This document shows, piece by piece, positions 18,475 to 23,069 of a DNA stretch of 64,000 nt; the first letter of the stretch is position 1; each line of letters opens with the position of its first letter. Source of the DNA: an uncultured delta proteobacterium (GTDB lineage Bacteria > Myxococcota_A > Polyangia > Polyangiales > Polyangiaceae); contig CAWAIF010000003.1 in NCBI GenBank assembly GCA_963782055.1, positions 5,504,001 through 5,568,000 on the forward strand. Reading direction: 5' to 3'. A model generated the notes under the pieces. The model saw only the letters and a program-made list of their open reading frames with translations. It was not told the origin of the DNA and did no database searches. Both the position numbers and the translations under genes were made by a program.

Positions 18475-20235
18475 TCACACCGTGTGGATGTGGAACCCGC
18501 AGTGGGTGGCGGGGGTGCGACCCTGCAGCTCGCAGAGGACCTCCTCCGGGAGCGGGAACCAGCGCAGCGCCTCCACGTCCTTCGGCAGCGGCGGGTCGGC
18601 GGTGGGGTCCCAGCCCAAGAACTCGCCCTCCGCCTGCTCCACGATGCGCGCCGCCTCCTCGAGGTAGCCCGGCAGCGCCCACTCCGGCTCGGTCTCGTGG
18701 CGGGAGCGGTACTCCAGCTTGCCGGAGCGGTAGGAGAGATCGGCGAGGCGCTTGGTCGGCTCCGGACGCGCCTTGCGTGGGCGCCACTGCGCCGTCGCGA
18801 GGTCGAAGCGGTAGTGCGGCAGCAGCTTGTAGCCGTGACGCGCGACGAAGTGCACCGCGTCGAGCACGAACTGGAACACCGTCTCGGAGATGAAGTAGTT
18901 GAAGTTGACGCGCACCCACCCGGGCTTGACGCCCTCCGACCCGGCGAGGATCGCGCAGGCGAACTGCCGCGACGTGGTGAGGTCGATCCCCAGCAGGCGG
19001 TGGCCGTAGGGGCCGGCGCACGAGCAGCCGCCGCGCGCCTGGATGCCGAAGAGATCGTTCAGCAGGGAGACGACGAAGTTGTGGTGGAGCGCGCCCTCGC
19101 CGTGGAGCACCACGAAGGAGACGATGGAGAGGCGCCACGCGTGCTTGTTGCCCAGGATGCGGATGTTGGGGTTCTGGCCCCACGACTCGACGGCGCGGTG
19201 GATGTACGACTCCTCCTTCTGCCGGATGAGATCGACGCCGACGGCGTCCTTGAGCTGGAACACCAGACCCGCGCGGATGGACTCCAGGATGGCGGGGGTG
19301 CCACCCTCCTCGCGGTGCACCGGGTCGCTCAGGTACCGGTGCTCGCCGGCGCTGACGTAGGCGACGGTGCCCCCGCCGGGGAGCGAGGGCACGCGGTTCT
19401 TGAGCAGGTGCCGCTTGACGACGAGCACGCCGGGCGTGCCCGGCCCGCCGATGAACTTGTGCGGCGAGAGGAAGACGGCGTCCTTGTAGGCGAGGTGGGC
19501 GTCCTCGCCCTCGCCCACCGGGTTCATCTCCATCTTCACGTACGGGCCGGCCGCGGCGAAGTCCCAGAAGGCGAGGGCGCCGTGCTTGTGGAGCAGCGTG
19601 GAGATGGCGAGCGTGTTGGAGCCGATGCCGGTGACGTTGGACGCCGCGGAGAAGCTGCCGATCTTGAGGGGGCGGTCCGCGTAGGCGACGAGCTCGCGCT
19701 CCAGGTCGGCGAGATCGATGTGGCCGTCGGCGTCCTCGTCGATGACCACCACGTCGGCGATGGACTCGCGCCACGGCAGCTCGTTGGAGTGGTGCTCGTA
19801 CGGACCGATGAAGATGACCGGTCGCTCGGCGTCGGGGATGTGCCCGGAGAGACCGTAGCGGGAGTCCAGATCCGCCGGCACGCGCAGGTTGAGGATGTCG
19901 ACCAGCTTGTTGATGGCGCTGGTGGCGCCGGAGCCGCAGAAGATGACGAAGTCGTCCGGGCCGCCGCCGACGGCGTCGTGGACGACCTTGCGCGCGTCCT
20001 CGCGGAAGCGCGTCGTCTGCATGCCCGTCTGCGAGGTCTCGGTGTGGGTGTTGGCGTAGAAGGGCATGACCTCCTGACGCATGTAGTCCTCGATGAAGGC
20101 GAGCGAGCGACCGGACGCGGTGTAGTCGGCGTAGGTGACGCGGCGGGGGCCGTACGCCCCGGACAGGACCTGGTCGTCGCCGATGATGGCGTTGCGGATG
20201 GTCTCGATGAGGCGCTCGCGGGGACCGGTGGGCAT
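18475..20235 (-). CDS. Class V PLP-dependent aminotransferase / cysteine desulfurase-like enzyme
   Basis: YADYTASGR, YANTH, GSGATSAIN, PYEHHSN, SPHKFIGGPG, RGGCSCAGPYGH; start 20235 or 20250. Confidence 0.85.
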   Translation of the reverse strand: MPTGPRERLIETIRNAIIGDDQVLSGAYGPRRVTYADYTASGRSLAFIEDYMRQEVMPFYANTHTETSQTGMQTTRFREDARKVVHDAVGGGPDDFVIFCGSGATSAINKLVDILNLRVPADLDSRYGLSGHIPDAERPVIFIGPYEHHSNELPWRESIADVVVIDEDADGHIDLADLERELVAYADRPLKIGSFSAASNVTGIGSNTLAISTLLHKHGALAFWDFAAAGPYVKMEMNPVGEGEDAHLAYKDAVFLSPHKFIGGPGTPGVLVVKRHLLKNRVPSLPGGGTVAYVSAGEHRYLSDPVHREEGGTPAILESIRAGLVFQLKDAVGVDLIRQKEESYIHRAVESWGQNPNIRILGNKHAWRLSIVSFVVLHGEGALHHNFVVSLLNDLFGIQARGGCSCAGPYGHRLLGIDLTTSRQFACAILAGSEGVKPGWVRVNFNYFISETVFQFVLDAVHFVARHGYKLLPHYRFDLATAQWRPRKARPEPTKRLADLSYRSGKLEYRSRHETEPEWALPGYLEEAARIVEQAEGEFLGWDPTADPPLPKDVEALRWFPLPEEVLCELQGRTPATHCGFHIHTV

Positions 20236-20269
20236 GGCGCTGCAAAGCATACTCCTGTACGTGTTGGGT

Positions 20270-20450
20270 TGCCTCCCCGGTCAAGAGCCGGTGAGGTAGT
20301 CGCGGCCGGTCCGGGAGGAGCGCCCAGCGTCCTCCGTGCCTAGAGCACCTCGAGGGGACACTGCGCCCTCCCGGACCGCGTCGGGATGCAACGTCCGACC
20401 GGAAGTCGCGCCACGAGCGCCAGTAACAGGAGCGATGAGTGCATCTCGGC
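20270..20450 (+). ncRNA. Putative IS110 bridge RNA (5' hairpin, target-binding loop, donor-binding loop)
   Basis: Stems 20308-20318/20367-20377 (perfect 11 bp) and 20381-20390/20440-20449 enclose internal loops whose sequences match the target (AGCGTCCTC, CGAGGGGA) and the donor junction (ACCGGAAGTC, ACAGGA); transcript ends are estimates. Confidence 0.78.
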
Positions 20451-20475
20451 TGGCCGTTTCGAAAGGAGGTCCGTC

Positions 20476-21732
20476 GTGGATGAAGGCAAATTGTTCGTGG
20501 GCATCGATTGGGGCACGGGCACCCACCAGGTGTGCGTGCTCGACAGCGACCGCAAGGTCATCGACCAGCGGCAGGTGGAGCACGACGGCGAAGCCATCGC
20601 CGCGATGGCCGACCGGCTGCTGACGCTGGCGCACGGTGACGCGACCAGGCTGGCCGTGGGCATCGAGACGCCGTGGAGCGCGGTCGCCGAGGCGCTGCTC
20701 GAGCGCGGCATTCATGTATTTTACATCAACCCCAAGCAGCTCGATCGCTTCCGCGATCGGCACACCGCCTCCGGCGCCAAGGACGACCGGCGCGACGCCT
20801 TCGTCATCGCGGACTCGTTGCGGACCGACGCCCACGCCTTCCACCAGATCAAGGTCGGCGACCCGCGCCTGGTGGAGCTGCGGGAGCTGTCGCGCATGAA
20901 CGACGAGCTACGGAAGGACGTACACGCGCTCGCCGGCCGTCTCCACGCGCAGATGGTCCGCGTCTTCCCGCAGGTCCTCGAGCTCGGCTCCGTCTACACC
21001 GACCTTTGGCTGCTGGCCTTGCTGAGCCGTGCGCCGACGCCGGAGCAGCTCAAGGAGCTGAGCCTCGCGAAGGTCCGCGTGGTGCTCACCACCCACCAGG
21101 TCCGCAAGTGGACGCCCGAGCAGGTGTGCGCGACGTTGCGCAAGAAGCCGCTGACGGTGGCGCCCGGCGTCATGACCGCGGCGGCCGCACACGTCCGCGC
21201 GTTGCTGCCGCGACTGCTGCTGCTTCACCAGCAGATGCGCGAGACGCGCGCCGCGATGCGCGGGCTGCTCGACGACCTCGCCAAGCCCTCCGAGGAGCCA
21301 GACAAAAATGAGCATCGTGACGTGACCATCCTTCGATCCTTGCCGGGCGTCGGAATGATTGTCGCCGCCACGATGCTCACCGAGGCGCCTGAAGCGCTCG
21401 CCGCTCGAGACTATCACCGGTTGCGCCTGCTCTGTGGGACTGCGCCGGTGACCCGACAGAGCGGAAAGTCGTGGTCCGCCTCGATGCGCCGCGCCTGCAG
21501 CCGCCGGCTGCGGGCGGCCGTCTTCCACATGACCAACACCCTCATCGCCCACGACCCCCGCGCCAAGGCGCTGTACGCGGCGCACCGCGGTCGCGGGCAC
21601 ACCCGAGGGCACGCGCTCCGAGCCGTCGCAGACCGCGCGCTGGCCATGCTGGTGGCGATGCTCCGCGACGGCAGGGTGTACGACCCGAGCCGCCGCGGCG
21701 TACCCGCCGCGCCTGTTGCCGCATCTTCCTGA
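20476..21732 (+). CDS. IS110-family DEDD transposase/recombinase
   Basis: FVGIDWG, GIETP and KDDRRDA (DEDD RuvC-like); LRSLPGVG...GTAPVTRQSGK C-terminal domain; AAGGAGG RBS before GTG 20476. Confidence 0.93.
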   Translation: MDEGKLFVGIDWGTGTHQVCVLDSDRKVIDQRQVEHDGEAIAAMADRLLTLAHGDATRLAVGIETPWSAVAEALLERGIHVFYINPKQLDRFRDRHTASGAKDDRRDAFVIADSLRTDAHAFHQIKVGDPRLVELRELSRMNDELRKDVHALAGRLHAQMVRVFPQVLELGSVYTDLWLLALLSRAPTPEQLKELSLAKVRVVLTTHQVRKWTPEQVCATLRKKPLTVAPGVMTAAAAHVRALLPRLLLLHQQMRETRAAMRGLLDDLAKPSEEPDKNEHRDVTILRSLPGVGMIVAATMLTEAPEALAARDYHRLRLLCGTAPVTRQSGKSWSASMRRACSRRLRAAVFHMTNTLIAHDPRAKALYAAHRGRGHTRGHALRAVADRALAMLVAMLRDGRVYDPSRRGVPAAPVAASS

Positions 21733-21743
21733 CGAAATCGGGC

Positions 21744-21749
21744 TTGCCA
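21744..21749 (+). promoter_or_regulatory. Outward-facing -35-like hexamer at the IS110 right end
   Basis: TTGCCA; after circularisation it lies 17 bp from TACGTG (20258-20263, a weak -10 match). Confidence 0.45.
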
Positions 21750-21801
21750 ACACACCGGAAGTCCCCTCGCCGGCTCGCCGCTCACCGGGCATACTCGCGC
21801 C

Positions 21802-22497
21802 ATGCGCCGCGCCGTCCTCCCGCTCCTGTTCGCCGTGGCCGTGGCCGCGTGCCATGGCTCCAGCACCGACTCCACGCCGGCCCCCCCCGCGAGCGCGAGC
21901 GCGCCTGCGCCGGGCGAGACAGCCCCGCCGCCGTCCGCCACGGCCGCGCTCGCGCCGCCCCCCCTGGCGTCGGCCTCCGCCGCCGACACCTCGGCTGTGG
22001 GCGCCGCGGCCGGCGCGACCGGCGCTGTGGGCGCCGCGGCCGGCGCGACCGCCCACGCGGGCGCGCCCACGACGACCGCCGCGGCCCCCTCGGCGCCGCT
22101 CGTGCCGGGGACCGGGTCGCACTTCGAGGGCAAGCACTTCACCCTCGACGTGCCCGCGCCGGCCGGGTGCGCGAAGGGCCAGCCGTGCTCCTTCGTGGCG
22201 AAGCTCACCGCCACCGGCGCGTTCCACGTCAACAAGGAGTACCCCTACAAGCTGACGATGACCGCCGTGCCCGGGGTGGAGTTCCTCGGCAACGACGTCG
22301 CCGCCCGCACGGTCTTCTCCAAGCACGGCGGCGACTTCACCGTCTCCGGCGAGAAGTCCGGGACGATGGTGGTGCGCTACCAGCCGAAGGTGTCCGGCCC
22401 CGTCAACTTCACCGGCACGCTCAAGCTGAGTGTGTGCAACGCCAGCACGTGCCTGATGGACCAGGCGCCCGTGAAGGCGTCGGTCCCCGTCCGTTGA
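21802..22497 (+). CDS. Hypothetical lipoprotein (Ala/Pro linker plus beta-sandwich, DsbD-N-like)
   Basis: MRRAVL...VAAC lipobox; FHVNKEYPYKL...LKLSVCNASTC. Confidence 0.7.
   Translation: MRRAVLPLLFAVAVAACHGSSTDSTPAPPASASAPAPGETAPPPSATAALAPPPLASASAADTSAVGAAAGATGAVGAAAGATAHAGAPTTTAAAPSAPLVPGTGSHFEGKHFTLDVPAPAGCAKGQPCSFVAKLTATGAFHVNKEYPYKLTMTAVPGVEFLGNDVAARTVFSKHGGDFTVSGEKSGTMVVRYQPKVSGPVNFTGTLKLSVCNASTCLMDQAPVKASVPVR
21994..22050 (+). repeat. Intragenic tandem repeat (27-nt identical unit, 30-nt period, two copies)
   Basis: GCTGTGGGCGCCGCGGCCGGCGCGACC at 21994 and 22024. Confidence 0.85.
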
Positions 22498-23069
22498 GCC
22501 TCCGCCGCACCGCGAACGTCGCCCTCGTCGCCGACCGCGAGCACTACGACGAGCTCGTGATGGGCGTGGTGGTCAAGGCCCGCACGCAGGTGTGGATCGC
22601 GACGGCCAACCTGAAGGAGATGATGCTGGAGGCGCCCATCGGCACCACGGCGCGCGCGCGCGGACGCTACATGTCGGTGCTGGAGGTGTTCCGCGATCTC
22701 GTCGCCCGCGGCGTGGACGTGCGCATCCTGCACGCGTCGCCGCCCTCGGGCCCCTTCCGGCGGTCGCTCGCGCGCTTCACGCCGGGGGCGCGCCGCCGGG
22801 GCTTCCAGATGCGCATGTGCCCGCGCGTGCACCTCAAGGTGATCGCGGTGGACGGCGCGTCGCTCTACCTCGGCAGCGCCAACTTCACGGGCGCAGGCCT
22901 GGGCGCGAAGGGCGACGGCCGGCGCAACTTCGAGATGGGGGTGCTCACCGACGACGACGTGCTGCTCGACACCGCGCAGGCGCGCTTCGACCGCATCTGG
23001 TCGGGGAAGGAGTGCGCCGGGTGCAAGCTGCGCCGCCTGTGCCCCAAGCCGATCGACACGCTGAAGTGA
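22494..23069 (+). CDS. Phospholipase D-like protein with a single HKD motif
   Basis: VHLKVIAVD...YLGSANFT...NFEMG; TTG start overlapping the upstream TGA; C-terminal CAGCKLRRLCP. Confidence 0.82.
   Translation: MSLRRTANVALVADREHYDELVMGVVVKARTQVWIATANLKEMMLEAPIGTTARARGRYMSVLEVFRDLVARGVDVRILHASPPSGPFRRSLARFTPGARRRGFQMRMCPRVHLKVIAVDGASLYLGSANFTGAGLGAKGDGRRNFEMGVLTDDDVLLDTAQARFDRIWSGKECAGCKLRRLCPKPIDTLK

Follow-up and report, generated by a model that had tools for sequence, protein, structure and literature searches.

The question raised by positions 20253-21764 of the 64,000-nucleotide (nt) stretch analysed here, which we call the window (uncultured delta proteobacterium of the Polyangiaceae, contig CAWAIF010000003.1, positions 5,504,001 to 5,568,000 of the forward strand), is whether a single-copy element of about 1.5 kb is a complete IS110-group element, in which a bridge recombinase gene is preceded by the gene for its own bridge RNA, and whether the four guides of that RNA can be read from this one copy. 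An earlier sequence-only reading had proposed both. We conclude, at a probability of roughly 0.9, that the interval is an intact element of this kind, with the bridge RNA gene in its left end. We favour a bridge RNA because the protein family, the catalytic residues, the RNA architecture, the guide-to-flank matches and the covariation of guides and flanks across the family all agree.

Homologues were sought by protein searches of 401 genomes of the order, which gave 18 matches in 14 genomes, the window's own included. One genome (G228) holds two copies that are identical for 1,774 nt and diverge beyond, and another (G161) holds two copies 98.8% identical across 1,682 nt; these multi-copy genomes fix the boundaries of the element. 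In most homologues the left end starts with CTGTAC and the right end closes with G-G-(G/A)-A-G-T, followed by CC. The window agrees on both sides (CTGTAC from 20255; GGAAGT up to 21762, then CC), and the boundaries proposed earlier are therefore supported by comparison. TCC stands at both of them (20253-55 and 21762-64), so that a short core is repeated at the two ends without terminal inverted repeats, as is characteristic of the IS110 group; a long left end that contains the RNA and a short right end, also typical of that group, are likewise present. The parts of the element and the host DNA next to it are as follows.

20246-20252, plus strand: left target, the 7 nt of host sequence that precede the core; the left target guide matches it at 5 of 7 positions, or 6 of 7 with a G-T wobble.
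20253-20254, plus strand: left copy of the core in the TC reading (20254-55 in the CC reading), within the duplicated TCC.
20255-20475, plus strand: left end, 221 nt, beginning with the CTGTAC start common to homologues and encoding the bridge RNA.
20463-20469, plus strand: Shine-Dalgarno-like AAGGAGG, 6 nt before the GTG start.
20476-21732, plus strand: recombinase gene, 418 amino acids, with PF01548 and PF02371; D11, E64, D104, D107 and S329-G330 align to the catalytic residues of IS621.
21733-21761, plus strand: right end, 29 nt in the TC reading.
21762-21763, plus strand: right copy of the core in the TC reading (21763-64 in the CC reading).
21764-21769, plus strand: right target CCCTCG, host DNA and full complement of the right target guide.

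Two other observations on element anatomy were made among the homologues. The two G228:C1 copies (L038 and L041) are 1,768 nt long; some 250 nt of additional DNA separate the stop codon of their recombinase gene from the conserved right end, which makes their right end much longer than in the rest of the subfamily. On one metagenome contig, two identical matches to the bridge RNA model described below lie 1,723 nt apart (L195:413-562 and 2136-2285) and could be tandem or adjacent copies of an element.

The recombinase frame opens with GTG and is full length, its 418 residues falling within the 401-425 of its relatives. Residues 8-165 match PF01548 (DEDD_Tnp_IS110) with an E-value of 1.1e-35 (123 bits against a cut-off of 29), the C-terminal Tnp domain PF02371 (Transposase_20) is matched at 6.4e-16, and with 166.9 bits the protein passes the 140-bit cut-off of the NCBIfam equivalog NF033542, "IS110 family RNA-guided transposase". 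A single-protein phmmer search of the PDB returned no chain at E <= 0.001; a profile of 22 homologues reached the IS621 transposase (8wt6) at 1.3e-13 and, second, ISCro4 (9t56) at 1.9e-12. In the profile alignment D11, E64, D104 and D107, which are invariant in the 22 homologues, stand opposite D, E, D and D of IS621, and S329-G330 is aligned to its S-G. The published catalytic residues of IS621 are D11, E60, D102, D105 and S241-G242 (Hiraizumi et al. 2024, PMC11208158); the numbering of the PDB chain is offset by 2 from that of the paper. The nearest protein among 5.8 billion clusters is 71% identical, and 5,756 of 8,000 candidates scored reach E <= 1e-20. A single-protein search of genome contigs for related loci found no relative, and an alignment query was needed to find them. 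The hosts of the homologous loci include Polyangiaceae, Acidobacteriota, Rokubacteria, Alphaproteobacteria, Rhodothermales and others; the nearest named relatives of the window's host are metagenome-assembled genomes of the Polyangiaceae and Polyangiales. Five of the related loci (L025, which is G322:C590, and L029, L030, L033 and L040) show one in-frame stop, TAG or TGA, within the six-frame recombinase match; such copies may have decayed, or the true gene may not include the stops.

Upstream of the gene, the left end has the properties of a structured RNA. Folded as RNA, 20256-20460 reaches -106.5 kcal/mol (z = -4.43), and none of 200 shuffled sequences was as stable. The fold consists of a 5' hairpin followed by two stem-enclosed loops, each with one small hairpin inside it. 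The outer stems (20308-18 with 20367-77, and 20381-90 with 20440-49) and both inner hairpins are those described in the sequence-only reading; the 5' hairpin given there as about 20272-20296 is present too, and its extent is longer.

20267-20301, plus strand: 5' stem-loop of the RNA, from the fold.
20303-20455, plus strand: match to the RNA covariance model R1, 122 bits, the only match in the window and in the whole genome.
20336-20348, plus strand: inner hairpin of the target-binding loop, GTGC/GCAC, from fold and alignment.
20408-20420, plus strand: inner hairpin of the donor-binding loop, GCGC/GCGC, from fold and alignment.

This structure is conserved. The RNAalifold consensus of a MAFFT alignment of nine homologous left ends, an alignment free of the bias that comes with fitting to a model, comprises 37 pairs, and for 21 of these a compensatory double change is seen at least once. 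The same alignment served to build model R1. In a first series, made up of 80 genome loci, six related-genome loci and the window, R1 matches 83 of the 87 sources; in a second, made up of 80 metagenome loci together with L025 and the window, 80 of the 82 sources are matched, with 81 matches in all. Of the six sources that lack a match, three or more hold little or no DNA upstream of the gene. Where the loci are oriented by the gene, the R1 match stops 20-100 nt before the recombinase match starts. Across 67 distinct rows, 92% of the cells pair, compared with 39-48% when the 3' partner is slid by one to three columns, and 26 of the 37 pairs show a compensatory change; the observed values were reached in 0 of 500 shuffles. 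One predicted "helix", at alignment columns 35-37/86-88, is the complementarity of the two target guides to one another over the core.

Within the two loops the four guides of this copy can be read directly. A rereading of 20100-21900 found every string cited in the sequence-only reading where it had been placed, and the four guides match the element's own target and donor as that reading had claimed, at 7 of 9, 8 of 8, 10 of 10 and 6 of 6 positions.

20326-20334, plus strand: left target guide AGCGTCCTC, 7 nt plus the core TC, followed by a 1-nt linker at 20335.
20351-20359, plus strand: right target guide CGAGGGGA plus the handshake base C (20359); its complement is 21761-69.
20398-20407, plus strand: left donor guide ACCGGAAGTC, identical to 21754-63 at 10 of 10 positions.
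20424-20432, plus strand: right donor guide TAACAGGA plus the handshake base G (20432); this variant occurs only in the window and in L025.

The first loop corresponds to the target and the second to the donor; in each, the 5' side has the sense that pairs with the bottom strand and the 3' side that which pairs with the top strand, and the core is included in all four guides. The left target guide AGCGTCCTC matches AGCATACTC (20246-54) with two mismatches, one of which (guide G against bottom-strand T) could form a G-T wobble. The right target guide CGAGGGGA (20351-58) is the reverse complement of TCCCCTCG (21762-69), and the complementarity extends to 9 nt along the right junction (21761-69), one more than had been noticed before. 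The left donor guide ACCGGAAGTC has only two copies in the 64-kb window, against 0.17 expected, and two or more copies occurred in 0 of 100 shuffles. ACAGGA (20426-31) is the reverse complement of TCCTGT (20253-58), and with one further base, also newly noticed, the complementarity to the left junction spans 7 nt (20426-32 against 20252-58). The right donor guide is discontiguous: the window's GTAACAGGA lies opposite TCCTGT and then AC, with one RNA base unpaired. Both handshake bases fit, C 20359 with G 21761 and G 20432 with C 20252.

If these segments are guides, they should vary with the DNA that flanks each copy, and they do so in two sets of homologues. For each RNA match the 5' and 3' loop segments were taken by alignment column; the left boundary was defined as an exact CTGTAC, and the right boundary as the locus's own left donor guide (at most one mismatch) followed by CC. 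Of the 83 rows in the genome set, a left flank was obtained for 65, a right flank for 66 and the two together for 49, leaving 33 after identical guide sets were collapsed. Of the 79 rows in the metagenome set, which is independent and was used to build nothing, 43 had both flanks, and these yielded 37 distinct guide sets; counting was limited to rows with two flanks, and each guide set entered once. For the left 9-nt guide the highest score among three registers was used (unshifted, or moved by 1 nt in either direction), with the same freedom given to the control pairs. Among the genome loci the right guide matches its own flank at 4.67 of 5 positions on average and the flanks of others at 2.05, and the left guide at 6.64 of 9 versus 4.61. 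The corresponding values for the metagenome loci are 4.68 versus 1.61 (right) and 6.89 versus 4.46 (left). In all four comparisons the observed value was reached in 0 of 10,000 permutations. The window itself, at 5 of 5 (right) and 7 of 9 (left), is ordinary for the family. The donor guides, by comparison, are near-constant (GTGGGGAGT and GTACAGGG), matching the conserved element ends.

The claim of an intact IS110 recombinase with a bridge RNA is in this way supported by family models, catalytic residues and covariation, and the two comparisons that had been suggested for examining it, a covariance model of the folded RNA and the covariation of guides with targets, both favour it: the RNA stands before nearly every related gene, and guides track flanks in both sets. 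What does not hold is that an 8-nt right target guide is unusually long. In nearly every member of the subfamily the right guide consists of 5 nt, the 2-nt core and handshake bases, so that the window follows the norm.

The identity of the core requires separate treatment. Because TCC is duplicated, the core may be read as TC or as CC, and the circle junction and the empty site are identical under either reading. Of 108 distinct guide/flank combinations, 90 have CC in the guide as well as in the flank, and by homology the right-end side (AGT, then CC) and the right target guide (GGAC, as family-wide) read CC in the window also. The combination of a TC guide, a TC flank and a right donor guide reading TCCTGT is found, among the 108, only in the window and in L025. 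From these sequence comparisons the core is likely TC rather than CC; the TC core of the sequence-only reading finds support in the G322 relative, while the right-end side, by homology, reads CC.

The unusual left donor guide of the window recurs in three relatives, either as it is or altered by 1 nt, in the form ACCGGAAGT in L125 and in a remnant in genome G003, and in the form ATCGGAAGT in the G322 relative (L025). The protein of the G322 relative is 63% identical to that of the window; its left and right guides match its own flanks at 9 of 9 and 4 of 5 positions, TC stands in both guide and flank, and its right donor guide is altered as in the window. L125, the only metagenome locus above 55% identity in the scan, is 72% identical, with guide matches of 7 of 9 (left) and 5 of 5 (right), a CC core and a right donor guide of the family type. 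The G003 remnant (L023:1246-1418; G003:C330, about 22745-22917), in a congener, consists of a truncated RNA gene and lacks the recombinase gene: up to the donor-loop hairpin, left end and bridge RNA are kept, 84% identical to the window over 170 nt, and unrelated DNA follows. Its left guide matches the left flank at 9 of 9 positions, with a CC core. It is possible, though we rate it somewhat short of an even chance, that the window and the G322 relative form a sub-lineage whose core moved naturally from CC to TC, its guides changing along with it. On this tentative account the left target guide would have gone from CC to TC and the right donor guide from GTACAGGG to GTAACAGGA, with no change in the target loop's right-hand guide. 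The idea that the TC register is restored in the window by one inserted nt on the 3' side of the right target guide was considered as well and dropped, the G322 relative being without this insertion.

The route by which such an element would move can be sketched by analogy with IS621. It would excise as a circle in which the right end is joined to the left end across the core; the junction would place a -35 box of the right end (21744-49) before the left end, and an RNA of about 200 nt would be transcribed. The first internal loop would hold the target and the second the donor junction, with 20398-407 pairing with the right end and core and 20424-31 with the core and left end. A recombinase tetramer, combining the DEDD RuvC-like domain and the catalytic Ser, would then exchange strands at the core, most likely TC, and the one extra base 3' of each right-hand guide would fit the partner DNA after exchange (the handshake). 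Transcription, circle formation and present-day activity are features that we infer. Three short motifs near the ends bear on the scheme.

21744-21749, plus strand: TTGCCA, a -35-like hexamer and putative half of a junction promoter, from homologue right ends.
20261-20267, plus strand: GTGTTGG, left arm of a 7-bp subterminal inverted repeat; partner 21747-53.
21747-21753, plus strand: CCAACAC, right arm of the same repeat; partner 20261-67.

At the position of TTGCCA, TTGACA or a sequence one mismatch away from it is found in 32 of 47 distinct homologous right ends, which is consistent with a promoter that may form at the junction of the circle. The 7-bp repeat CCAACAC/GTGTTGG brackets the donor segment. 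When repeat arms were compared across the family, cognate pairs averaged 4.14 and non-cognate pairs 3.89; the cognate value was reached in 373 of 5,000 permutations, which is not significant.

The setting of the element in its host genome (7.58 Mb in three contigs, 71.7% G+C) bears on its history. It lies between two divergent genes.

18475-20250, minus strand: class-V aminotransferase gene, likely start at 20235 or 20250.
21802-22497: lipoprotein-like frame, whose signal peptide has a lipobox-like A-A-C motif at its end.

The divergent intergenic region that the element splits (20235-20252 and 21765-21801) would be about 40-55 nt long without it, and the insertion probably separates at least one flanking gene from its promoter. 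The aminotransferase gene of the left flank is kept in some 20 related species, where its upstream intergenic DNA cannot be aligned and the right-flank gene is not syntenic; no empty site was found in the genomes of related species. In G003 other DNA, beginning with another reading frame, lies between the two genes.

The 15-mer specified by the guides occurs in the host genome once exactly (0.076 expected from composition) and three times with one mismatch, and 17 sites have an exact core and right target with at most two left mismatches. The exact copy (G000:C3:1335334, minus strand) is unoccupied, and its context is unlike a repeat. Several of the good sites fall within a 60-70-nt, G+C-rich, partly palindromic intergenic repeat resembling repetitive extragenic palindromic (REP) sequences, with about 20 or more copies, the 5' part of which contains near-perfect copies of the target specified by the bridge RNA. 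Copies of this REP-like repeat were seen at G000:C3:6871106-6871280 and near C3:1396541, 1712764, 376831 and 6860384; none lies inside the window. The G003 remnant stands in the same sequence context, and the REP-like repeat is probably the natural target of the lineage. The window's copy lies at a two-mismatch site, outside any recognisable repeat.

Several results weigh against an intact and functional bridge-RNA element. Alignments fitted to the model, that of the 67 rows included, give pair counts that are biased towards it. Among the 4227 families of Rfam 15 the RNA has no match at E <= 1, the presence of a bridge RNA model in that collection not having been checked; the sole row from a scan of 19800-22200, a plant microRNA at E 0.98, was set aside as a chance match. 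A fixed-register test of the left guide over 7 nt is weak (3.03 versus 2.18), the signal being clear only when a 1-nt shift is allowed, and in the window this guide has two mismatches to the site it occupies. The -10-like hexamer across the modelled junction, TACGTG (20258-63), 17 nt away, is weak, and no sigma-70-like promoter was found in the integrated context. Among the sequencing runs that hold the stretch no RNA run was found. Three metagenome DNA runs from one study contain contigs of 151-391 nt that are 100% identical to the window; all lie within the gene and none crosses a junction, which is neutral on circle formation and excision. Finally, the element is single-copy despite the copies of its 15-mer and the 17 good sites, none of the better ones being occupied; this argues for low or no present activity, or for recent arrival.

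The strongest alternative draws on these points. It holds that the insertion was indeed made with a bridge RNA and that the copy is now stranded or silent, for example through a weak promoter or host silencing, its guides recording a past event. The genome contains one element copy, one PF01548 match and one RNA-model match, 17 unoccupied sites equal or surpass the occupied one (one of them perfect), the -10 is weak at the modelled junction with no promoter found in the integrated form, and a truncated relative without a recombinase gene persists in the congener. Set against this are a frame that is intact and full length, with all catalytic residues kept, four guides that still match, RNA guides and DNA ends that have changed together within the lineage, and gene fragments 100% identical in the metagenome contigs of one study, which may however come from the same organism. 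We consider a stranded copy unlikely, while giving it more weight than any other alternative to an intact element.

Far less credible is the proposal that the left-end structure is a recombinase binding site at the DNA level, or a 5' leader that regulates translation, with the flank matches as by-products of site preference. It is true that no transcript was observed, no RNA run having been found, and that the structure lies directly upstream of the ribosome-binding site. Compensatory changes at 26 of 37 pairs are, however, what is expected of a folded single strand, and the unpaired loops vary and track their own flanks and ends in two independent sets, as neither a leader nor a binding site need do; the same architecture, moreover, belongs to an experimentally shown guide RNA in the published descriptions of IS621 (PMC11208160, PMC11208158). 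Chance matching is a negligible prospect even in a genome of 71.7% G+C and with matches of only 6-10 nt, since two copies of the 10-mer ACCGGAAGTC are present where 0.17 would be expected, each of the four matches has the loop position and strand predicted for it, and the permutation tests on homologues already contradict it.

The closest experimental counterpart of the element, taken as intact, is IS621 of Escherichia coli, a bridge recombinase with its bridge RNA (Durrant et al. 2024, PMC11208160; Hiraizumi et al. 2024, PMC11208158). In both, a DEDD RuvC-like domain is joined to a Tnp domain with a catalytic Ser-Gly, and the gene is preceded by a long left end that encodes the RNA, which has a 5' stem-loop and two internal loops. 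The loop layout is shared (linker, 9-nt guide, 1-nt linker, hairpin, 2-nt linker, right guide), as are the pairing of the 3' side with the top strand over 4-7 nt, the inclusion of the core in all four guides, the discontiguous right donor guide and the handshake bases 3' of the right-hand guides. The right end of IS621 carries a -35 box, and its promoter is described as forming only in the circle; the right end in the window has the -35-like hexamer given above. Relatives of the window's element, like IS621, target a REP-like repeat, which is usual for IS110. The two differ in that the recombinase has 418 amino acids here and 326 in IS621, that IS621 is reached only by profile, mainly over the C-terminal domain, that the core is TC or CC here and CT in IS621, and that the window's host is G+C-rich and its element known from sequence alone. 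The engineered bridge recombinases ISCro4 and IS622 (bioRxiv 10.1101/2025.05.14.653916) belong to the same family and are distant in sequence.

The IS1111 group, with its seekRNA, has in common with the window's element a DEDD recombinase and RNA-guided choice of target and donor. In that group the RNA lies in a long right end and subterminal inverted repeats measure 7-17 bp. The 7 bp of CCAACAC/GTGTTGG are at the low end of this range, compared with the 2-3 bp reported for the IS110 group. With its RNA in the left end and a right end of only 29 nt the element is nevertheless of the IS110 group rather than of IS1111. ISPpu9 and ISPpu10 of Pseudomonas putida (PMC12288879, bioRxiv 10.64898/2026.03.19.712850) target REP sequences, and the target specified by the window's guides, like the G003 site, lies in the REP-like repeat; the window's copy differs from them in lying outside a recognisable repeat, in its two left-guide mismatches and in being single-copy.

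The IS110 bridge recombinases, to which the element belongs as a new member, are a very large kind and already known; the protein has a ready name in NCBIfam NF033542, thousands of such orthologues have been predicted in print before, and knowledge of the mechanism is unchanged by the element. For those who build tools it adds a candidate orthologue whose core is C-rich and whose recombinase is larger. Its bridge RNA could be decoded by eye from one copy, and the decoding survives tests of covariation. Mildly new is that a whole subfamily, large and widespread in soil bacteria and far from IS621 in sequence, retains the same RNA geometry; mildly new too are the 7-bp subterminal repeat and the possible coordinated change from CC to TC in a sub-lineage. 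If true, that change would be a case in nature of RNA and DNA being re-programmed together at the "fixed" core, and would mean that the two sides of a loop can differ by 1 nt in the register of strand exchange.

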